Origin: Dehalococcoidia bacterium
GTDB lineage: Bacteria > Chloroflexota > Dehalococcoidia > GIF9 > AB-539-J10
Assembly: GCA_034431195.1 (NCBI GenBank)
Contig: DAOUDP010000001.1
Location: forward strand, 179,385-243,384
Direction of reading: 5' to 3'
Length of the DNA: 64,000 bases
This document shows positions 2,666 through 53,300 of this stretch, in pieces. The notes under the pieces were generated by a model. That model searched no databases, was not told the origin of the DNA, and saw nothing but the letters and a program-made list of their open reading frames with translations. Both the position numbers and the translations under genes were made by a program. Each line of letters opens with the position of its first letter. Position 1 is the first letter of the stretch.

Positions 2666-4075
2666 ATGAAGCCTCGAAAGTTGTTGTGGTTGAGCCTTTT
2701 GATAGTGGCTAGTCTGGTTATGCCTGCCTTCCTGCAATTCTATGTAGTTCCTCCCCAGGTGGCGATGGCCAGCCCCGATACAGTTACTTATTATTTCAAC
2801 GCTTATGGTGCCGAGGTTTGGGAGTTCAGTCCAGCTTCTATGACCGATGGCAATCTCGGTACCTATGCTTCTACCAACAACGCAGGAGAAGTTCAGCTTA
2901 ATAATGCAAATAACTGTTCCGGAACAGGTTTAGGGCCAATCAGCAAAGTTGAGCTTCGGGCTTATGGATATGGAGATGGTGGAGATTTTATCTATCTTCG
3001 ACCGGTTTTCACCGCAGGAGACGGAACTAACCACACGTGGACTCCAGGAACATCGCCTGGCTGGAGTCCTTACTATAATATTACCAGTGATACCAATGCC
3101 CCCACTTCATGGAACTGGAGCAATGTTCAGGAACTTGACGTTGATGTGGTGTATGATGGTTTAGCTAAACCAAATCTTTTGTATATTGCTAAAGTTGAGA
3201 TTCGGGTTACTTATACACCAAATGTTTCGCCCACTGTGGGCACCATCACCATCTCACCAAGTCCTATGACGCCGCAGGAGCAGTGGACAAATATAACCGT
3301 CCCCGTGACGGATAACGATACTCTCGCTGATGTGAATGAGGTTCATGTCACTGTGTTCTATGACAGTGCCGGAACCGACCCTTCGGCACCAGGGACGGCC
3401 AATGTCCAGACCTGTGCCATACTCACCTGGACCAGGGGAGGTTCTCCCGAGTGGGATATTGACCCGGCAAGCACAACCTGGGCAATCAATGCCGCTGGAT
3501 GCTCCAATGGCACTGACAGCCTGACCACAGATAACTGGGTGTTCTCCCTCAAGGTAGGCAAGGTAGCCACCCAGTCCCCTGGCAGTGATGATTGGGATAT
3601 ATATGCTAAAGCAACGGACAGCGCCAGCCAAACCGGAGATAATTATCTCCGTGATGTAGAGATGAACTGGTATGGCGAGATAACGGTGGAGACTTCAACC
3701 GTCTCCTGGGGAATTGTAAGTCCCGGTTGCAGTAACGAGACATCCCCGGTGGTGAACATTACATACATCTGCAACGGTAACTACACTGAGCAGATAAAGA
3801 CATCACAGAACTGGACCAGCGCTTCGGGCAACGTAACCCTGAATACAACTGGCAGCCCGGGGGCAGGTGAGTTTTCGCTGAAGGCCGATGATGATGACAC
3901 CGTTGCGGACGCTGTGCAGGTTCTTAGTGCATCGTATACCACTTTTGACACTGGCACTCAGACCACTGAGGCTGGGAATGCGGAAAACAACAATCACCTC
4001 TGGCTCTCACTAGGCAGCTCGGGCATCACATATGACACCTACTCCGGCACACTTTACTTCAGCATTGCACCGTGA
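2666..4075 (+). CDS. secreted surface (S-layer-like) protein, N-x-S/T sequon-rich, N-terminal signal peptide
   Basis: Signal peptide MKPRKLLWLSLLIVASLVMPA; Thr/Ser/Asn-rich; about 14 N-x-S/T sequons; paralog of the 4266-5276 product, sharing a NVTLNTTG(S/T)PGAGEFSL...YSGT(L/I)YF C-terminal block. Confidence 0.6.
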   Translation: MKPRKLLWLSLLIVASLVMPAFLQFYVVPPQVAMASPDTVTYYFNAYGAEVWEFSPASMTDGNLGTYASTNNAGEVQLNNANNCSGTGLGPISKVELRAYGYGDGGDFIYLRPVFTAGDGTNHTWTPGTSPGWSPYYNITSDTNAPTSWNWSNVQELDVDVVYDGLAKPNLLYIAKVEIRVTYTPNVSPTVGTITISPSPMTPQEQWTNITVPVTDNDTLADVNEVHVTVFYDSAGTDPSAPGTANVQTCAILTWTRGGSPEWDIDPASTTWAINAAGCSNGTDSLTTDNWVFSLKVGKVATQSPGSDDWDIYAKATDSASQTGDNYLRDVEMNWYGEITVETSTVSWGIVSPGCSNETSPVVNITYICNGNYTEQIKTSQNWTSASGNVTLNTTGSPGAGEFSLKADDDDTVADAVQVLSASYTTFDTGTQTTEAGNAENNNHLWLSLGSSGITYDTYSGTLYFSIAP

Positions 4076-4265
4076 ACCAAATGGAGATTGCTTCGGCCTC
4101 TGTGCTTCGCAATGACATAACAGCACTAAAGTGATATTGCCAAGCGTAGTGCAAGGCAGTATAAGTAGCGTAGGGTATTGTAACCCCATAAGATATTTGA
4201 TAGATTTATTACATAGTTATTAATGTAGTAATATAGAGAATTAAGTAAGTAGAGGGGAAAGAATA

Positions 4266-5276
4266 ATGAAAGGAAGGAAATTTGTATCAATTGTGGCTAC
4301 CCTGGGGCTGATGCTTGCACTGGCATTGGTCCCGATGGCACTGCCGGTCACGGCAGCTGAAAACCAGACTGCCACAGGTAACTTCACAGTGGGGAACGCT
4401 GTGCCGACGGTTGGGACGCCTACAGTTACTGCTTCGATGACTCCGCAGGCACAAGCATGGGTCAATGTTACCATCACCGATAACAACAAGCTATCTGACC
4501 TTTCCACAGTACAGACAGTTTTGTTCTACGATGCTGATGGCACCTATACTGACCCTGGAGCATCCCCGACTCCTGATACCCAGACTCTTGCCATTATGAC
4601 CTGGTATGCATCGAATGACACTTTTACCATCCAATCTGGTTCTCCTTCCACCTGGTCAATAGATAATTCAACTTCCACACATCCGGCTCTCACTGAATAT
4701 AGTGGCGACTGGAAATTTAGTTTCCAGCCAGGCAAGGTGGCTACCGAAACCCCTGGTAGTGATAGGTGGTTTGCAAGAGTTAACGCTACTGATTCTGCAA
4801 GTGCTACTGGGAGTAACAATAATAGCGCCACTGGTTCCACAATGAATTTCTATGGCGAGATAAATGTGAATACCACCATAGTTGATTTTGGGACTGTAGC
4901 CCTTGGGTCGGGCTTTGCTGCAAACAACGAAACTGCGGACGTTAAGAACATCGCTAATGGCAACTATAACGAAACTGCCAAGACCGACGATGGCTCAGGA
5001 AATGGCAAGTGGCTCGGTGCTACAGCAAATGTGACCCTCAATACCACCGGTACTCCTGGAGCTGGTGAGTTTTCCCTGGCAATCGATGATAGCACTACTT
5101 TAGCCAGTTCGGTAAACATGAGCACGGCTTATCAAGCGATAAACAGTGCTGGAGTTCAGACTGGCGAGGCTGGCTATCCCAGTGGTAACCATGGATTGTG
5201 GCTAGCGGTGGGGGCAGAAGGCATCGAACCAACAGAGTATAGTGGAACGATTTATTTCCAGATTGCAAACGGCTAA
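4266..5276 (+). CDS. secreted surface protein, paralog of the upstream gene, sequon-rich
   Basis: Signal peptide; shared blocks PGKVAT(Q/E)(S/T)PGSD, ATDSAS(Q/A)TG, MN(W/F)YGEI, NVTLNTTGTPGAGEFSL. Confidence 0.6.
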   Translation: MKGRKFVSIVATLGLMLALALVPMALPVTAAENQTATGNFTVGNAVPTVGTPTVTASMTPQAQAWVNVTITDNNKLSDLSTVQTVLFYDADGTYTDPGASPTPDTQTLAIMTWYASNDTFTIQSGSPSTWSIDNSTSTHPALTEYSGDWKFSFQPGKVATETPGSDRWFARVNATDSASATGSNNNSATGSTMNFYGEINVNTTIVDFGTVALGSGFAANNETADVKNIANGNYNETAKTDDGSGNGKWLGATANVTLNTTGTPGAGEFSLAIDDSTTLASSVNMSTAYQAINSAGVQTGEAGYPSGNHGLWLAVGAEGIEPTEYSGTIYFQIANG

Positions 5277-5281
5277 GGTAA

Positions 5282-6418
5282 ATGGCTAAACTGAGATGGG
5301 GGGCAGCTTTAACTGTCCCCCTTATCTTTATTACTCTTTTTCCCTTTTTGCTCACTCCCCTGCCAGTAAAGGCTGGAGGGTTAGCAATGTCGGGCAGCTT
5401 TTATCGCCAGAAGTTTGAGCTGCCCCAAGGGGTAAATATAAGCTCCCCGGGCATTTATGTGGTCATATTCAACAATGCCGACGATGCACTCAAAATCAAT
5501 ATGACCACTGAGGCTCCGATGGGAGTGAAGTTAGCGCTCTCTGAGGAAGATTTCGTTCTCAACGCTGGAGAACAGAAAAAGGTGATGGTTGGCGTTAATG
5601 TCACTGAGGATGCTGTTCCCGGAGAATATGAGCTTAAGATAAGTGCTGAAGCCCAGAGGGAAGGTGCCGGCATAAAAATCGTTGGCTCTGTTGCTCAGAC
5701 CGCTACGTTAACCATCATTGGTGAAGCGGCTTCAGTGGAGGTAACCGCGGTCAACCCCAGCGACGAGCCTATGCCTGCAGTGGTCAGGTTATACAAACTG
5801 GTAGATAGCGAGAAAACGGACTTTGGCTATTCCGAGACGGGGAGTCTCAAAGTCAAAGTATCGCCGGGAAAATACCTTGCTGAAGCTTATGTTGGTGGGA
5901 AAAAGCTGGTTGAGGAGGCCTTCGATATAGCCGCGGACGAGGAGAAGACAATAACCCTCGTTGTGAGAACGGTTTGCTTTGAAGGTTTTGGCATCGTTCC
6001 TAATTACCACACCGAGACCGGCAAGCTTGCCTTCGTCCAGTTAGTTTATACCATAAACAACCTTTATCAGACCTTCCCTGAAGCTGAGGTGGTGCTAAAG
6101 GTGACACTTGATGGCACTCCGTTAGAGGAGACCACGGTGGCAACGCTTACCCCGCTGAAGAAGGTGAGAGTTACGCAAGAATATCGTTACATCCCAGCGG
6201 GGGGCTGGCTGGATGGGACTTATGGCTTTACGCTTCAGTTGAATCTGGAGGGTGAGCCCTATGCTACCACCCTGGAGGAGGAATTGAATGTGAGTGGTGA
6301 AGTCGCAGGAGCCAGCCACAGCCGCTATTACATTATTGGCGGAGTAGTGGCAGCAGTAATCATCGGCGGGGCATACTTCTTGATGAGGAGAAGGAAGACT
6401 AAAGCTTCATCTGCTTGA
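5282..6418 (+). CDS. secreted protein with a C-terminal transmembrane anchor and basic tail
   Basis: N-terminal signal peptide; C-terminal YYIIGGVVAAVIIGGAYFLMRRRKTK. Confidence 0.5.
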   Translation: MAKLRWGAALTVPLIFITLFPFLLTPLPVKAGGLAMSGSFYRQKFELPQGVNISSPGIYVVIFNNADDALKINMTTEAPMGVKLALSEEDFVLNAGEQKKVMVGVNVTEDAVPGEYELKISAEAQREGAGIKIVGSVAQTATLTIIGEAASVEVTAVNPSDEPMPAVVRLYKLVDSEKTDFGYSETGSLKVKVSPGKYLAEAYVGGKKLVEEAFDIAADEEKTITLVVRTVCFEGFGIVPNYHTETGKLAFVQLVYTINNLYQTFPEAEVVLKVTLDGTPLEETTVATLTPLKKVRVTQEYRYIPAGGWLDGTYGFTLQLNLEGEPYATTLEEELNVSGEVAGASHSRYYIIGGVVAAVIIGGAYFLMRRRKTKASSA

Positions 6419-6435
6419 AGACCAGGTGAAAAACA

Positions 6436-7995
6436 ATGAAAAAAACAGAAGCTATCGGGCTTGTATTCACTCTTTTTGCCCTTCTTATAGTGCCCCTGGC
6501 CTGCACGCATCATATCGTAAGCGCCAATGATTCGGCTGGAGGCAGCTTTACGGTGGATACGACGCCGCCGGCAAATGTTACCGACCTAGCAGTAAGCGGT
6601 GCAACCACTAATTCTCTCACCTTAACCTGGACCTCACCAGGGGATGATGGCAACAATGGGACAGCTGCTGAGTATGATATCAGATATGCCACCTCTAACA
6701 TCGATAACGAAACCTGGGGGTTTGCCACCCAAGTAAGCGATGAGCCGGCACCGGGGCCAGCGGGTTCAAACGAAACATTTGTGGTTGGTGGGCTCACCCC
6801 TGCCACCACATATTACTTCGCCCTAAAAACGGGGGATGATGCTGGCAACTGGGCTAATTTGTCCAATATCGCCCATGGAGCCACGCTGAGAAGCGGTGGA
6901 GGTGAAGGCATCAACCATCACAAAAGGTATTTCACGGTTGATTTTCTGGGGAAGCTTACCTCTGTGCCCCTGAGTTGGGACAGAAGTCTGGCAGTTTCCT
7001 TGTTGGCAACCAGCCTTGATGGCACAGCCAGCCTGAAAATAGATAAGGGGACGAAGGTGCTGGACGCCGCTGGCAAACCCGTGGGTGAGCTAACGATAAG
7101 GACAGTAGCTAATCAGCCGCTCTCTCTTTTGCCCAACACTACAATGGTTGGCAATGTCTATGACGTTACCCCTTACAACGTTACCTTTGACAAACCAGCT
7201 ACGCTAACCCTTGGCTTCTCTCCCTCTGAAGTGCCCGAGGGTGCTTTATCACTGACCATTGTTTATGGCTCAGAAGCAAGCTGGAAGGAGATAGAGGTAG
7301 AGTGGACTAGTATTGGTGGATTGGATGCCCTGAGCGCTAAGATAAATCACACGGGCATGTTTGCCATTATTGCCGAGATGTTATCTTTCTCGGAGTTGGA
7401 AATAGGGTATATGGGACAAAAAGTTACCTCGGGGAACATCACCAAGGATGGATTTCTGATGGAGTCCCTCGAGTTCACCATTCAAAATGGAAATGGAGAG
7501 CTATATTTTAGCCTTCGCGAGGGGACGAGGATGCTGAATCGTGAAGGCAAGCCGCCAGCCATGATTATGATAGACCCCGTTGCACCATCAGAGCTTCCCC
7601 CTCCTCCGTCTGATAGCTCCGTTATCCTGATGCCCTTCAGCATTCACCCTGACCTTACCATCGACCCAATAATGAAGGTGACAATCCATTATGACAAGTG
7701 GGAGCTGGGCGATGGCATTAACGAAGAGGATTTGGTCCTTGCCTACTATGATGAGGCAAGGGAGAAATGGGTGATGCTGCCCACTGAAGTAGATGTAGAG
7801 GCTAACACGGTTACCGCCTGGGTTAGTCACACCAGCATATTCGCCATTCTTAGTAACATAGCTGGTGAATTCCCGTGGTGGTGGATTGTTGGGGGTGTCC
7901 TTGGTATCGCCCTGCTGGCATTCCTAATCAGGCACCGAATCAAGTCCCGTCCTGCTGCAAAGCCAGACGCAAGTCAGACACGGCTAACCAAATAG
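6436..7995 (+). CDS. cell-surface protein with an N-terminal fibronectin type III-like domain and a C-terminal TM anchor
   Basis: Signal peptide; FN3-like TTPPANVTDLAVSGATTNSLTLTWTSPGDDGNNGTAAEYDIRYA...GLTPATTYYFALKTGDDAGNWANLSN; C-terminal WWWIVGGVLGIALLAFLIRHRIKSR. Confidence 0.6.
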   Translation: MKKTEAIGLVFTLFALLIVPLACTHHIVSANDSAGGSFTVDTTPPANVTDLAVSGATTNSLTLTWTSPGDDGNNGTAAEYDIRYATSNIDNETWGFATQVSDEPAPGPAGSNETFVVGGLTPATTYYFALKTGDDAGNWANLSNIAHGATLRSGGGEGINHHKRYFTVDFLGKLTSVPLSWDRSLAVSLLATSLDGTASLKIDKGTKVLDAAGKPVGELTIRTVANQPLSLLPNTTMVGNVYDVTPYNVTFDKPATLTLGFSPSEVPEGALSLTIVYGSEASWKEIEVEWTSIGGLDALSAKINHTGMFAIIAEMLSFSELEIGYMGQKVTSGNITKDGFLMESLEFTIQNGNGELYFSLREGTRMLNREGKPPAMIMIDPVAPSELPPPPSDSSVILMPFSIHPDLTIDPIMKVTIHYDKWELGDGINEEDLVLAYYDEAREKWVMLPTEVDVEANTVTAWVSHTSIFAILSNIAGEFPWWWIVGGVLGIALLAFLIRHRIKSRPAAKPDASQTRLTK

Positions 7996-8081
7996 TAAAT
8001 TATATCGCTGAACATCTCTTGAATGAGCTATCTTTAGTAGCTCAATAATGTTTATAATAAAAGAACTTCGTATCTAAAGAA

Positions 8082-8702
8082 ATGGATTGGGAGAGCATAA
8101 TCAGCCTCATAATTGCCCTTTTAGTGGTAATTGCCCTTCCTTTAGCCTTTCGCAGAAGAAAGAAGGCAAGCGTCCAGAAAAGAGAGGAGCTTTACCAGCA
8201 TCTTAAAGAAACGGGGGTGAAGGCTTCGTTGGTGGAAAAAGGCAATGAAAGGGAGAAAATAGGGCTAAGCCGTATCTCGGGGCAGACATCGGAAGGAATT
8301 ATTGAACTCGAAGATAGAAATATAGATTCCATAAATATCATCAGCGCAGCCAGTCAGTATGGCACAAACTATTTCCTGGATTACCTGGTGAAGAGCTCAA
8401 ACATAACGGCGAACCGAATACTAAAGAAAACCAAGCTGACGGTAAAGAAAAGCTTATTCCTATGGGGCAAGGTGGTAGCTATGGAGTGGAAGGGAGATAA
8501 ATCGTTAGCCCAGAGCCTTAATTTCGATTACCGGCTCAAAGATAGACTATTGCAGCGTGATGTCACCGGTCTAAGGGGAAGCATCGGGATCTTCCCTGAG
8601 CCAAAACATGGATACACCAGAATAAGAACTGGTCACTCTCTTCCTTCCCCCGAGATATTCGAAGTATTGGATATCATTGCCAGGCACATCAAGTCATGGT
8701 GA
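8082..8702 (+). CDS. hypothetical membrane protein with an N-terminal TM helix
   Basis: ORF with hydrophobic N-terminus IISLIIALLVVIALPLAF followed by RRRKK; no recognisable family. Confidence 0.4.
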   Translation: MDWESIISLIIALLVVIALPLAFRRRKKASVQKREELYQHLKETGVKASLVEKGNEREKIGLSRISGQTSEGIIELEDRNIDSINIISAASQYGTNYFLDYLVKSSNITANRILKKTKLTVKKSLFLWGKVVAMEWKGDKSLAQSLNFDYRLKDRLLQRDVTGLRGSIGIFPEPKHGYTRIRTGHSLPSPEIFEVLDIIARHIKSW

Positions 8703-8828
8703 CCTCGATAACAGGATTGTCAGGATAGTCATAAAAGAGATTAGTTGGTAAAATGTGGTACCAGGTGTGAGTTACGGGTAAGGGCGTATATTATTTACAA
8801 ATTGAATTGGCGATTTGGAAGCGAATAA

Positions 8829-9479
8829 ATGATGGAAATGTACCTGAAGCCAACTCCAGTAATCGATTGTAACGCTCCTCCTGTGAGAGAAAAAGCCCAG
8901 AATTTAACCGCAGACAAGGAAAACGATGTGGAGAAGGCGAAGGCACTTTTCTACTTCGTCAGGGACGAGATCAAGTATAACCCCTATGTGCTACACAATC
9001 TTGTTGAACATAATAAGGCAAGCGTCACTCTGAGTAGGGAAGAGGGATACTGCGTTCAAAAGGCGATACTCCTTGCTGCACTAGCACGAGGTGTAGCAAT
9101 CCCAGCCCGCCTTGGATTTGCTGATATACGCAACTATATCGTCCCTCAAAAGTTGCTGGAGCTGATGCATGGGAGTAACCTTTTTATCTATCATGGCTAT
9201 TGTGAGCTATATATCGGACAAAAATGGGTTAAAGCTACACCGGCGTTCGACCTGCAAATGTGTCAAGAACATCATATCATTCCAGTGGAGTTTGATGGCA
9301 AGAACAATGCCACTTTCCACCGCTACAATCAGGAGGGAAAACTACATATTGAGTATGTCTGCGATTATGGTCATTACCCTGACCTTCCATTGGAGGAGAT
9401 ACTTAAAGCTCGCGTGAAGGTTTATGGTCCTGATTATCTAACAATACAGGAAAATTTCGCTAATCTAAACTCTGGCTAA
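8829..9479 (+). CDS. transglutaminase-like cysteine peptidase superfamily protein
   Basis: EGYCVQKAILLAALARGVAIPARLGF core Cys motif typical of transglutaminase-like domains; a downstream His is present. Confidence 0.65.
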   Translation: MMEMYLKPTPVIDCNAPPVREKAQNLTADKENDVEKAKALFYFVRDEIKYNPYVLHNLVEHNKASVTLSREEGYCVQKAILLAALARGVAIPARLGFADIRNYIVPQKLLELMHGSNLFIYHGYCELYIGQKWVKATPAFDLQMCQEHHIIPVEFDGKNNATFHRYNQEGKLHIEYVCDYGHYPDLPLEEILKARVKVYGPDYLTIQENFANLNSG

Positions 9480-20776: not shown

Positions 20777-21706
20777 TCAATGAGGAAGCATCTCCAGGAC
20801 TTGCTTTAATTCCTCAGGCAAAGGAGCGCTAAATTCAAGGTATTGATTGGTTGACGGCGAACAGAAACCAAGCCGCTGAGCATGAATGAATTGCCGACCA
20901 AGATAAGCTAATTTCACACCGTAAACGGGGTCACCAACCACAGGATAACCAATAGTGGCAAGGTGCACCCTTATTTGGTGTGTCCGCCCTGTTTTGGGCA
21001 TCACCTCGAGTAGAGTATAATCACCAAAATATCGGTTAACCTGGTAATGTGTTATTGCCTCCCTCCCTCCTTCCACTATCGCCATCCGCTTGCGATTTCT
21101 CGGGTCTCGCCCAATAGGCAACTCGATTGTCCCCCGACCAGGAAATACCCTCCCGTTAACCAGAACGAGGTAACTCTTGGTTACTGTTTTACCTTTGAAC
21201 TGGTTAATCAGAGAAACTCGAGCGGATTCATTTTTAGCAACAACGATGAGCCCTGAAGTATCTTTATCCAGCCTATGGACTATACCTGGTCGCACCAAGC
21301 CACCACTCCCTTCCAAACCGGGACAATGCGCCAGAATAGCATTAACTAAAGTATGGTCGGGATGCCATGGAGCTGGGTGAATGGTTAAGCCAGCAGGTTT
21401 ATCCACCACAATAATCTCGTTGTCTTCATAAATTATATTCAGAGGAATTGATTCAGCTTTCGGGAGAGTAGGCAAGGGAGGAAATTCAATGGTTATTCTG
21501 TCTTCTCCAGCCAATTTCCGACTCGCCTTAGCCTGCCGTTGATTAACTAAAATATAGCCTTGCTCAATTAATTTCTGTAAGTAAGCTCGAGAAAATTGAG
21601 GAAATGTCTTAGCTAAATAACTATCGAGGCGAATCCCCGATGTGGGAACAGTGAGATGAAGCATTTTAGCCTTTGGAAGTGCGTCCATGGTGATATACCC
21701 TGGCAA
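20777..21706 (-). CDS. rluD: RluA-family 23S rRNA pseudouridine synthase (RluD-like)
   Basis: S4-like N-terminus followed by HRLDKDTSGLIVVAKN catalytic motif. Confidence 0.85.
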   Translation of the reverse strand: MPGYITMDALPKAKMLHLTVPTSGIRLDSYLAKTFPQFSRAYLQKLIEQGYILVNQRQAKASRKLAGEDRITIEFPPLPTLPKAESIPLNIIYEDNEIIVVDKPAGLTIHPAPWHPDHTLVNAILAHCPGLEGSGGLVRPGIVHRLDKDTSGLIVVAKNESARVSLINQFKGKTVTKSYLVLVNGRVFPGRGTIELPIGRDPRNRKRMAIVEGGREAITHYQVNRYFGDYTLLEVMPKTGRTHQIRVHLATIGYPVVGDPVYGVKLAYLGRQFIHAQRLGFCSPSTNQYLEFSAPLPEELKQVLEMLPH

Positions 21707-22169
21707 ATAATTCTATACGATAAAGGGAATAAATGAATAAAAGGATGCCAGCCACTATAGCAGCATCCGCGAAATTAAATGCTGGCCAGTGGAAATTGTT
21801 CCAGAGCCGAAGATCAACGAAATCAACGACATAGCCGAAACGAAAGCGATCTATCAAATTACCGGTGGCGCCACCAAAAAGCAAACCAAGCGATACATTG
21901 CTTAAAGCAGCCTTAGATAATAAGTAATGTCGCACCAACAAAATGATAATTAAGACTGCTATAGTGGTAGCGATAAGAAGGGAAACCTGTCCCGGCAGCA
22001 AGCCAAAAATGGAGCCAGTGTTCTCACGATATACTAAATTCAGGAAACTTTCTCCAGAGGGCGGCAATAAGGCTGAATTGCTCCTCACCCATAGCTTAGT
22101 CAGTTGGTCGAGGGCGATTATTGAAGCAGCAGCAACCAAAAACAGCTTAAGTTGCCCTTTATCTTGCAT
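21666..22169 (-). CDS. lspA: lipoprotein signal peptidase II
   Basis: DQLTKLWV...NTGSIFG...GGATGNLIDR...VVDFVD...FNFADAAI motifs; overlaps the rluD start, as in lspA-rluD operons. Confidence 0.85.
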   Translation of the reverse strand: MQDKGQLKLFLVAAASIIALDQLTKLWVRSNSALLPPSGESFLNLVYRENTGSIFGLLPGQVSLLIATTIAVLIIILLVRHYLLSKAALSNVSLGLLFGGATGNLIDRFRFGYVVDFVDLRLWNNFHWPAFNFADAAIVAGILLFIYSLYRIELFARVYHHGRTSKG

Positions 22170-51354: not shown

Positions 51355-51579
51355 ATTACACCCGCCCTATCAAATATTCGGGACACTCTACCTTGAACTC
51401 CAGAGTTTGTCAATCAAGCTGTATCTGTTCATAATGTAACCAACACGTGTGACCGAAATCACGATTCCCTTGCGCATGTTATAGCTATCTTTAACTTTGT
51501 CCAGTCAACCTCTCTTGACAAAGGGTGGGCTTGCTACATAAAATATAATAGAACTGAATAAGTGAAAGGCTGCGAACAG

Positions 51580-51835
51580 GACTAGTACAGTCTGAGGCGG
51601 AGTTTAGAGAGTCGGGTAAGGTGTAAGCCGATACTTGCGCAAGACTGGAATGGACCTGGGAGCTGCAAACCGAAAGGCTACAAGGCTGAGTAGGCTTTGT
51701 CGGTAGGGCACCGTTAGAAGCCCAGGGTATCGCTCTCAAGTTGAGCTGTATCCGAGAAGAGATAGTCGTAAGACTGAAATGGGGTGGCACCGCGAAGGTT
51801 AGGCCTCTCGCCCCCTGGCGAGAGGCCTTTTTATT
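51580..51835 (+). promoter_or_regulatory. T-box riboswitch leader (Trp-specific) upstream of trpB2
   Basis: Conserved T-box sequence AAATGGGGTGGCACCGCG at 51777-51794; UGG codons in the putative specifier region (ACUGGAAUGGA); followed by an intrinsic terminator. Confidence 0.7.
51801..51835 (+). terminator. Rho-independent terminator of the T-box leader
   Basis: AGGCCTCTCGCC-CCCT-GGCGAGAGGCCT followed by TTTTATT. Confidence 0.75.
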
Positions 51836-51938: not shown

Positions 51939-53300
51939 ATGGAAAGAACAAAATTCACCCTTGATGAAACAGAAATCCCTACTCATTGGTACAACATCCA
52001 GGCTGACTTGCCCAAGCCACTGCCACCGGTTCTGCACCCAGGTACTGGAAATCCAGTCACTCCTGACGATTTAGCACCCCTATTTCCCATGGAGCTGATC
52101 AAGCAAGAGGTGAGCACTGAGCGGTGGATTGAAATACCCGAGGAGGTGCGCGATGTATACCAGCTATGGAGACCGACAACGCTATTTCGGGCGCATAGAT
52201 TGGAGAAGGCTCTGGATACGCCGGCAAAGATTTTCTACAAATATGAAGGGACAAGCCCTCCCGGCAGCCATAAGCCAAATACCGCCGTAGCCCAGGCATA
52301 TTACAACAAGCAGGAAGGGATAAAGCGCATCAGCACCGAGACTGGAGCAGGGCAGTGGGGAAGTGCCCTATCCTTTGGTGGCGCCTGCTTCGGCGTTGAG
52401 ATCAAGGTCTATATGGTGAGGATTAGCTATGATCAAAAGCCTTACCGCAGAATAATGATGGAGACCTGGGGGGCGAAATGCGTGCCCAGCCCGAGTGAGG
52501 ATACCAAGGTAGGGCGAGATATGCTGGCAAAATGGCCTGATTGTCCCGGCAGCCTGGGTCTTGCCATTAGCGAGGCTGTGGAGGATTGTGTGACCCATGA
52601 TGACACTCACTACGCCCTGGGCAGCGTGCTCAACCATGTTCTGCTGCATCAAACTGTGAACGGCCTGGAGGCGAAAAAGCTGATGGAGAAGGCAGATGCC
52701 TACCCCGACATCATCGTCGGCTGCATTGGTGGAGGCTCAAACTTCGCCGGGCTATTTTTGCCCTTTGTCAAAGATAAAATTGATGGTACAAAGCCAGACC
52801 TGCGTGTCATCAATGTAGAGCCCATGTCTGCTCCCAGCGTTACCAAGGGACTATATACCTATGACTTTGGCGATTCAGCCCAGCTCACCCCCTTGATTAA
52901 GATGTATACCCTGGGACATAGCTTCATTCCACCCCCGATTCACGCTGGTGGACTGCGCTATCACGGGATGGCACCCATAATTTGCCATCTCCATCAATTA
53001 GGGCTTGTTGAAGCCAGGGCTGAGCACCAGCTTGCCACCTTCGAAGCGGGGGTGACCTTCGCCCGCACCGAGGGCATCATCAGTGCTCCAGAGCCATGCC
53101 ATAATATTAAGGTTGCCATTGACGAAGCCTTGAAATGTCGCGAGTCAGGCGAGTTAAAAACCATCCTGATAGCCCACAGCGGACATGGACATGTTGACAT
53201 GGCTGCCTATGATGCTTACTTTTCGGGCAAGCTCCAGGATTATGAGTATCCCGAGGATAAAGTAAAGGAGGCGCTGGCTGAGCTACCAAAGGTAGGCTAA
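51939..53300 (+). CDS. trpB: tryptophan synthase beta chain-like, TrpB2 family
   Basis: PLP-lysine motif GSHKPN; 453-aa long-form TrpB2-type length; downstream of a Trp T-box. Confidence 0.8.

Follow-up and report, generated by a model that had tools for sequence, protein, structure and literature searches.

The window analysed here, 64,000 nucleotides of a Dehalococcoidia genome, carries on its + strand four co-directional genes (P1 to P4, positions 2666-7995) that form a conserved, operon-like cassette. We give a probability of about 0.5 to the reading that their products assemble non-covalently into a complex for surface display, with P3 as its anchor. Dehalococcoidia abound in marine and subsurface sediments and are mostly uncultured; their cultured relatives have a single membrane and a protein layer instead of a wall, an envelope that is poorly understood in molecular terms. 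The cassette defines a large unannotated protein family, with 846 representative clusters, and its architecture suggests how Dehalococcoidia cells might display variable domains of adhesin-like or binding type at the cell surface. A more far-reaching proposal, drawn from sequence, is rather doubtful: that the cassette is an undescribed class-wide display system, with a new ~300 aa attachment module whose evolution was independent of the WxL system of Firmicutes, and that one Dehalococcoidia clade N-glycosylates this dedicated surface complex at plain N-x-T.

P1 (2666-4075, 469 aa) is the "long" and P2 (4266-5276, 336 aa) the "short" member of one family, P3 (5282-6418, 378 aa) is the membrane-anchored component and P4 (6436-7995, 519 aa) a second anchored protein. 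The intergenic gaps are 5 nt between P2 and P3 and 17 nt between P3 and P4. A terminator-like hairpin with a T-run, found by a consensus scan on the + strand at 8024-8044, 29 nt past the P4 stop codon, probably closes the operon. The AT-rich spacer of 190 nt between P1 and P2 (4076-4265) features an imperfect 9 bp inverted repeat at ~4207-4234 and a GAGGGG ribosome-binding site 5' of P2, both read from the sequence, and its fold has a z-score of -2.0. A separate promoter or operator for P2 may lie in this spacer, where a consensus promoter scan called none.

All four proteins start with a K/R-rich stretch followed by a hydrophobic segment of 24-30 residues, called signal-like from hydropathy and from conservation in the family alignments. 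Only P3 (349-369) and P4 (479-502) contain another hydrophobic helix near the C-terminus, with the basic tails RRRK and RHRIKSR, respectively, behind it. The original prediction, of a cell-envelope locus with four consecutive signal-peptide proteins whose last two have a C-terminal TM helix and basic tail, fits these exported proteins, of which two are anchored in the membrane.

P1 is composed of a signal-like amino terminus (aa 1-35), an extra domain of ~150 aa without family match (aa 36-185, nt 2771-3220) and a carboxyl-terminal two-domain module (aa 186-469, nt 3221-4072). P2 is the bare module (aa ~38-336, nt 4377-5273) behind a signal peptide (aa 1-31), and its AF2 model (pLDDT 90.3, pTM 0.80) has two beta-sandwich domains. 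Neither protein has a membrane anchor, and the signal-like segment is the only hydrophobic one in each. Their paralogy, previously proposed from a shared C-terminal block, is borne out and goes further, since the 44% identity stretches across ~305 aa and covers the whole of mature P2 (E 1e-63). The best-conserved P2 motifs in the conservation profile of the family alignment are FxFxPGKVAT, MNWYGEI, NGxY, EFSLKADD, LWLxLG and YSGTIY.

There is no Pfam family for this ~300 aa module of two beta-sandwich domains. Searched with a family profile, 1.84 billion representatives gave 846 matches, each a representative cluster at the 50% identity level, 351 of them at E<=1e-30. The module is C-terminal in nearly all of the best 150 of the 846 matches; the few exceptions among these 150 match only in part, some of them in proteins that have two or more matching stretches. 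The N-terminal extensions of the matched proteins reach ~1500 aa and include PKD, LamG_3, DUF11, DUF2341, Gly_rich_2, InlB B-repeat, Ice-binding-like, disaggregatase-repeat, SprB and CBM96 domains. The very different N-terminal passenger domains at the "long" position in relatives suggest that the module is a common attachment handle for the display of variable adhesin-like or binding domains.

P3 is the most conserved part of the cassette. Its signal (aa 1-31) precedes a hairpin rich in invariant residues, GGLAMSGSFYRQxFExPQG (aa 32-50, nt 5375-5431), an Ig-like domain of NEW3/NPCBM_assoc type that extends up to aa 146 (nt 5719), a second domain of CarboxypepD_reg type (aa 150-227, nt 5729-5962), a third domain (aa 231-337, nt 5972-6292) and the TM helix at about aa 349-372 (nt 6326-6397) with its basic tail. 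The P3 alignment has 56 invariant columns, and conservation peaks (0.86) in the N-terminal hairpin of the mature protein. A mean column identity of 62% in P3 against 22% in the P1/P2 module is the pattern expected of a fixed adaptor and variable cargo.

P4 has an N-terminal signal, recognized by hydropathy, and an FN3 domain (aa 38-152, nt 6547-6891), as had been recognized from the sequence: residues 48-137 match PF00041 above the gathering score (E 1.4e-8, 35.3 bits for a cut-off of 25) and the PDB matches are gp130 FN3 domains, up to E 1.6e-4. Two tandem domains of ~150 aa follow (aa 168-315, nt 6937-7380, and aa 323-476, nt 7402-7863), which are homologous to each other (25% identity, E 5e-10); the second has a sub-threshold PGF-pre-PGF match. 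The protein ends with the TM helix (aa 479-502, nt 7870-7941) and the basic tail.

In the proposed arrangement the complex would sit on the outward-facing side of the cytoplasmic membrane in a monoderm Dehalococcoidia cell. Exported P3 would stay tethered through its C-terminal TM helix, and its three Ig-like domains would serve as a docking or adaptor stalk. The anchorless P1 and P2 would be held on the cell non-covalently through their shared module, most likely by P3, whose invariant hairpin at the mature amino terminus is the best candidate for the contact. P4, with its FN3 domain, two repeat domains and TM helix, would be the other anchored protein of the complex.

At 24 of 30 Chloroflexota loci, mostly from Dehalococcoidia, the genes follow the order long member, ~335 aa short member, P3, P4-like gene. 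Directly 5' of P3 stands nearly always the short form of ~335 aa, with a long form (470 to 3016 aa) before it, and a P4-like gene usually comes after the P3 homolog. Four of the six loci without P3 are truncated by a contig edge; the other two (L014 and L029) have a family member without a neighbouring P3. Several family members can occur at one locus (five in L007), and some loci have two P3 genes. Apart from the cassette, conserved flanking genes are absent across the loci.

Upstream of P1, on the + strand, is a tRNA-Arg(TCT) gene (2480-2556; ARAGORN and Rfam), which precedes the cassette in the clade of the window and is context only, and before it the pair hicB (1985-2197) and hicA (2197-2415), overlapping by 1 nt, with HicA_toxin and HicB_lk_antitox matches of 64.0 and 35.8 bits, both above the Pfam cut-offs. 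The start of the cassette 110 nt past a tRNA gene, with a toxin-antitoxin pair alongside, invites the explanation that it is a genomic island, gained by horizontal transfer and inserted at tRNA-Arg, and tRNAs adjoin the cassette also in L019, L020 and L027. However, the two closest relatives (L001 and L002) have purC, tRNA-Arg(TCT) and the cassette in the same order without hicBA, so hicBA is the insertion, of roughly 560 bp, and the cassette is resident. The tRNA-Arg is no scar of integration: the window has neither a second copy of its 3' end nor an att-like repeat, and the same tRNA stands before the cassette in both relatives. No integrase is found at the locus, GC content and codon usage are ordinary, and housekeeping genes surround the cassette. 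None of four features of a tRNA-linked island (an integrase, a 3' end of the tRNA repeated in direct orientation, deviant composition, absence from close relatives) is seen and conservation is class-wide, so that the "island position" of the original prediction is abandoned and acquisition at the tRNA is very improbable.

The closest architectural parallel to the cassette are the WxL/WxLIP (Csc) clusters of Lactobacillales and Bacillales, described in PMC10599100 and compared here also through real clusters. They encode a small protein made of the module alone, a large one that carries the module at its C-terminus, and WxLIP, a TM-anchored protein with two Ig domains (DUF916 PGBD and DUF3324 HBD). 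The cassette mirrors this layout of long member, short member and TM-anchored Ig protein, conserved across loci, and appears to have reached it without detectable homology of the displayed module; no component of the two systems is a demonstrable homolog of the other's. P1 and P2 are not WxL domain proteins: none of 44 family members matches the Pfam WxL family at E<=1, and hhalign of the P1/P2 family with 7 genuine WxL proteins gives a probability of 2.9%. The likeness is superficial and limited to one LWL motif and to the terminal sequence, YSGTIY(F/Y)xI in the family and YxTTLTWxL in WxL proteins. The cassette module has ~300 aa and two beta-sandwich domains whereas the C-terminal WxL domain has 160-190 aa and two W-x-L motifs, P3 has three domains instead of the two of WxLIP, and the gene order differs. 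The hhalign match between P3 and WxLIP spans the TM helix, which may drive it. Cultured Dehalococcoides, members of the class Dehalococcoidia, have no peptidoglycan. If the host of the cassette lacks it too, the peptidoglycan-binding role proposed for WxL cannot apply.

By analogy with SlaA/SlaB of Sulfolobales, the cassette could alternatively code for a two-component S-layer in which P2, with P1 as a variant, would form the lattice of a wall-less cell and P3 its membrane-anchored stalk. Glycosylation, typical of such layers, would fit, but mature P2 has only ~32 kDa, SlaA being far larger, and the family has a modular cargo architecture, acting as a handle for very diverse passenger domains. 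The several members per locus (the five of L007 among them) and the two P3 genes at some loci also speak against a lattice, as does the position of family members, which adjoin a P3 gene in those 24 of 30 loci rather than standing apart. None of the 30 loci comes from cultured Dehalococcoides or Dehalogenimonas. The SlaB match is no better than generic Ig domain matches, and neither SlaA/SlaB nor the C-terminally TM-anchored archaeal S-layer glycoproteins have sequence homology with the cassette. The hints at an S-layer are indirect, and such a function is unlikely. Still less probable is a surface fibre or pilus assembled by beta-strand complementation, in which P2 would be the shaft, P1 the tip with its extra domain and P3 a PapD-like membrane-anchored chaperone or base, as likened to chaperone-usher systems, TasA/TapA or ABP filaments and sortase pili. 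TasA/TapA and the archaeal bundling pili AbpA/AbpB (PMC9245690) do share with the cassette a secreted beta-rich subunit beside an exported, putatively anchoring protein of several beta-sandwiches, in a monoderm organism and without ATPase or usher. Membership in the TasA/camelysin group is rejected by the lack of Peptidase_M73 signal, jelly-roll match and free donor strand in the cassette proteins. Sortase pili or LPXTG proteins are rejected as well, the sequence having no LPXTG motif and only sub-threshold LPXTG_anchor matches, which are due to the TM tail; no sortase is found beside the cassette among the Pfam-scanned window ORFs or the gene families shared between loci. The display complex anchored by P3 is preferred to both readings.

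The cassette proteins are rich in N-x-S/T sequons. The original prediction had about 14 and 13 in P1 and P2, which are the exact counts, and P4 has 10, corresponding to 3.0, 3.9 and 1.9 per 100 aa, respectively, versus 0.37 in 45 other proteins of the window. The four mature proteins have 41 N-x-[ST] motifs where 19.9 are expected from composition-preserving shuffles, none of which (n=2000) reached 41; the enrichment that had been proposed therefore holds above the compositional expectation. It resides in N-x-T (32 observed, 11.9 expected), N-x-S being at 1.10x, and control motifs have no excess: reverse [ST]-x-N 1.09x, N-x-x-[ST] 0.95x, D-x-[ST] 0.94x and adjacent N-[ST] 0.43x. The extended sequon D/E-x-N-x-S/T is not enriched (1 observed, 2.2 expected), which rejects a PglB-type bacterial N-glycoprotein.

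The excess could be structural or compositional, from Asx-turns or N/T-rich beta-sandwich surfaces of unglycosylated proteins, an explanation to which we give an even chance. WxLIP proteins of Firmicutes, which do not glycosylate them, have 27 sequons for 16.0 expected (1.69x, P 0.005), and distant members of both cassette families are at ~1.2-1.5x for forward and reverse motifs alike. In the WxLIP control, however, D-x-[ST] is equally raised, unlike in the cassette, where the excess is specific to Asn and Thr as the control motifs above indicate. Moreover, the window, L001 and L002 are the only loci with an N-x-T excess in both protein sets, P1/P2 and P3/P4 (ratios 1.9-2.6, z 2.1-4.4); the same-fold orthologs at the other 27 loci are at about 1 and neighbouring cytoplasmic ORFs at 0.3-0.85. 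Two non-homologous protein sets have thus gained sequons together in one clade and their cytoplasmic neighbours have not.

It is conceivable, at somewhat less than even odds, that P1-P4, all of which have gained N-x-T sequons in the clade of the window, are N-glycosylated there by an enzyme whose gene lies outside the window. The nearby glycosyltransferase or oligosaccharyltransferase envisaged by the original prediction is absent among ORFs of >=150 aa in the 64 kb window, and the literature searched had no account of N-glycosylated proteins in Dehalococcoidia; both points favour the structural explanation. Since no glycosylation gene lies in the window, we infer glycosylation from the sequons. 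N-x-S/T excess, preference for Thr and export to the surface are shared with substrates of cytoplasmic NGT (HMW1C) and with OST-dependent N-glycoproteins (archaeal AglB, eukaryotic STT3, Campylobacter PglB); unlike PglB substrates, the cassette proteins are not enriched in D/E-x-N-x-S/T. Campylobacter-type PglB enzymes need an acidic residue at position -2, while plain N-x-T is the archaeal and eukaryotic type of sequon. If the gain of N-x-T in this clade does reflect N-glycosylation, OST-like or NGT-like protein glycosylation would extend to Chloroflexota, and sequon-rich and sequon-poor orthologs would provide a clean comparative system to find the enzyme. The gained sequons stand at positions where other lineages have K, R, E, G or Y.

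The cassette (window 2666-7995) is composed of four co-directional ORFs coding for P1 (469 aa), P2 (336 aa; 4266-5276), P3 (378 aa; 5282-6418) and P4 (519 aa). All four proteins have a K/R-rich start followed by a hydrophobic segment of 24-30 residues, and a second, carboxyl-terminal hydrophobic helix preceding an Arg/Lys tail is found only in P3 and P4. P4 features an FN3 domain that scores above the Pfam threshold and, downstream of it, two tandem homologous domains of ~150 aa each. The original prediction had described precisely such a locus, with four ORFs, signal-like segments, a transmembrane (TM) helix and basic tail in P3 and P4 and an FN3 domain; this description is accurate and its reading as an envelope locus is borne out. 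P2, P3 and P4 are tightly spaced, with gaps of 5 nt between P2 and P3 and of 17 nt between P3 and P4, and a terminator-like hairpin sits 3' of P4. An Rfam scan of the cassette yielded no regulatory RNAs. A 9 bp inverted repeat with imperfect arms (TTATTACAT...ATGTAGTAA), found at window 4207-4234, just 5' of the P2 ribosome-binding site, could be an operator.

In public gene calls P3 begins at Met36, giving a 343 aa protein that lacks the signal peptide (window 5282-6418; locus L031 2890-3921). Alignment of the family, in which the hydrophobic amino terminus is conserved, supports the 378 aa form. The P4 signal region (residues 19-30; window 6436-6525) has a weak lipobox-like motif, P-L-A-C, and also a signal-peptidase-I-type site, VSA/N. 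Lipidation of P4 is possible; lspA is present in the window at 21666-22169.

P1 and P2 share a module of ~300 aa that accounts for all of mature P2 and for the carboxyl-terminal part of P1. A profile search against 1.84 billion representative proteins identified 846 family members, 351 of them at E<=1e-30. Among the 150 best matches the module is, with few exceptions, carboxyl-terminal, and it is preceded by amino-terminal extensions ranging from none to about 1500 aa, in which PKD, LamG_3, DUF11, DUF2341, Gly_rich_2, InlB B-repeat, ice-binding-like, disaggregatase-repeat, SprB and CBM96 domains are recognized. No family in Pfam or NCBIfam covers the module. Sequence searches of the PDB with profiles of the P1/P2 and P3 families and with P1 alone gave no matches, and fold searches returned generic Ig-like matches only. 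Among 44 family members, residues equivalent to P2 K157 and N231 are invariant and those equivalent to E198 and E301 nearly so, a set that resembles that of the intramolecular isopeptide bonds of Gram-positive pilin Ig domains.

The P3 family has a nearly constant length, a mean column identity of 62% and 56 invariant columns. Conservation peaks in a hairpin, GGLAMSGSFYRQxFExPQG, that immediately follows the predicted site of signal cleavage. Domain matches are consistent but generic (NPCBM_assoc/NEW3 in 35 of 35 members, CarboxypepD_reg in 25 and FixG_C in 22). The GG_III-CTERM, PVV-CTERM, PACE-CTERM and LPXTG sorting signals all scored below threshold, and these scores reflect the TM tail.

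Scanning one genome per GTDB species by pattern and tblastn yielded 30 loci, every one from Chloroflexota and nearly every one from Dehalococcoidia. In 24 of them the gene directly after that of a P1/P2 family member codes for a P3 homolog, usually with a P4-like gene next, and four of the six loci that depart from this arrangement are cut off by contig ends. The recurrent order is at least one long family member of 470 to 3016 aa, then a short one of ~335 aa, P3 and a P4-like gene. Clustering of all ORFs showed that only the cassette families are common to the loci, their flanks being different. The cassette is an uncharacterised, class-wide surface-protein system. It expands locally, as seen in locus L007 (998-10993), which codes for family members of 1201, 356, 922 and 335 aa together with two P3-family proteins (401 and 413 aa), and in L010 (1883-10933), which codes for a family member of 3016 aa.

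Some loci show further variations. A secreted S8 subtilisin-like protease of ~340 aa adjoins the cassette in six related loci (L012, L016, L018, L020, L027 and L028; e.g. L016 3362-4387) and is absent from the window; it may serve to process the surface proteins. In L002, one of the two closest relatives of the window locus, a single family gene (3209-4633) precedes P3 and combines a P1-like amino-terminal domain with a module 85% identical to P2, a composition that suggests fusion, deletion or recombination between paralogs. The segment 3' of the cassette in the window (8082-9479) codes for a 206 aa protein with an amino-terminal TM helix followed by RRRKK and for a transglutaminase-core protein without signal peptide. 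These genes are kept only in the nearest relative, L001, and are therefore probably outside the cassette.

Chloroflexota have been described as monoderm. P1 and P2 are exported without an anchor, so in such cells their retention on the surface requires a binding partner. The co-location of module and P3 genes, the constancy of P3 against the variability of the cargo and the near-constant presence of a bare-module protein next to P3 point to a P3-module complex at the cell surface, a proposal built on gene order and conservation. Membrane-tethered P3 would hold the module of P1 and P2, which would act as a common handle for the display of variable domains. It is also possible that the cassette builds an S-layer or a fibre. 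Models based on TasA/ABP, chaperone-usher or sortase pili were rejected as there are no family matches or accessory genes and their defining components are missing.

The architecture of the cassette parallels that of the WxL clusters of Firmicutes, yet the two have no demonstrable homology. Genuine clusters from Enterococcus, Melissococcus and Lactiplantibacillus plasmids were aligned for profile-profile comparison. The module family matched WxL with an hhalign probability of 2.9% and none of 44 members matched the Pfam WxL family; membership was rejected on this lack of profile homology. The P3 family aligned with WxLIP at a probability of 77.8% (E 1.9e-5), an ambiguous result since the match spans the last domain and the TM helix. 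By analogy, the cassette would work like a WxL cluster in its architecture without being one.

The window is a core-chromosome segment of an uncultured Dehalococcoidia bacterium, its remaining genes being mostly housekeeping (purC, pfk, his operon, dnaK-grpE-hrcA, glyA, prs, secA, valS, ileS, yidC, lspA). The neighbouring tRNA-Arg(TCT) (2480-2556) and hicBA pair (1985-2415, above Pfam thresholds) had led to the proposal that the cassette occupies an island position, which is refuted. L001 and L002 (~80% amino-acid identity) have the same order purC, tRNA-Arg(TCT), cassette and align with the window through the tRNA and its flanks, except that they lack hicBA. The hicBA pair is accordingly an insertion, ~560 bp long, that lies between purC and tRNA-Arg in this genome; the cassette itself is resident. 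No second copy of the tRNA 3' end that would form an att repeat was found anywhere in the window, no integrase is present, and the GC content and codon usage of the cassette match those of its neighbours.

The original prediction also noted dense sequons, of which P1, P2, P3 and P4 have 14, 13, 4 and 10. The enrichment is real: mature P1-P4 contain 41 N-x-[ST] motifs where shuffles predict 19.9 (z about 5.4), and N-x-T is what drives the excess, with 32 occurrences against an expectation of 11.9. The motifs N-x-S (1.10x), reverse [ST]-x-N (1.09x), N-x-x-[ST] (0.95x) and D-x-[ST] (0.94x) all occur about as often as expected. Adjacent N-[ST] is under-represented (0.43x), and no enrichment is seen in the mature proteins for the sequon of PglB type, D/E-x-N-x-S/T. 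Other exported proteins of the window show no significant enrichment.

This signal belongs to a single clade and shows no gradient. An excess is found only in the window, L001 and L002, with ratios of 1.9-2.0 for the P1/P2 set and of 2.3-2.6 for the non-homologous P3/P4 set; the cytoplasmic neighbours of these three cassettes are at 0.3-0.85 and the other 27 loci at about 1. The two sets do not correlate across all loci (Spearman 0.03). Database members with at least 70% identity show the same pattern (N-x-T 2.6x), and in more distant ones sequons are no higher than the reverse-motif control. Where Asn was gained, other lineages carry K, R, E, G or Y, and within the clade there is turnover of some sequons. 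This signal is tempered by the Firmicute WxLIP proteins, which have a 1.69x sequon excess with D-x-[ST] raised to the same degree, as Asx-turn motifs would produce; their source organisms are not known to N-glycosylate. Small WxL proteins are depleted in sequons. The original prediction proposed a search for glycosylation genes nearby; no glycosyltransferase or oligosaccharyltransferase was found in the 64 kb window among the 47 ORFs of at least 150 aa outside the cassette, hicAB and two nested ORFs (one in valS, one in an AtuA-family gene) that were scanned. A literature search found no report of N-glycosylation in Dehalococcoidia. N-glycosylation of the cassette proteins is a tentative reading, with the odds slightly against it.

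Elsewhere in the window, the segment 32825-36585, right after secA, has a low GC content (0.36-0.40 compared to about 0.47). Besides genes for a GmrSD_N (DUF262) protein and a RelA/SpoT-domain protein, it contains two ORFs (325 and 166 aa) that match no family, and it has the appearance of an acquired islet for defence or stress. Rfam places a T-box leader (RF00230, 102 bits) at 51563-51818, upstream of a gene coding for a PLP-dependent (PALP) enzyme (51939-53300).
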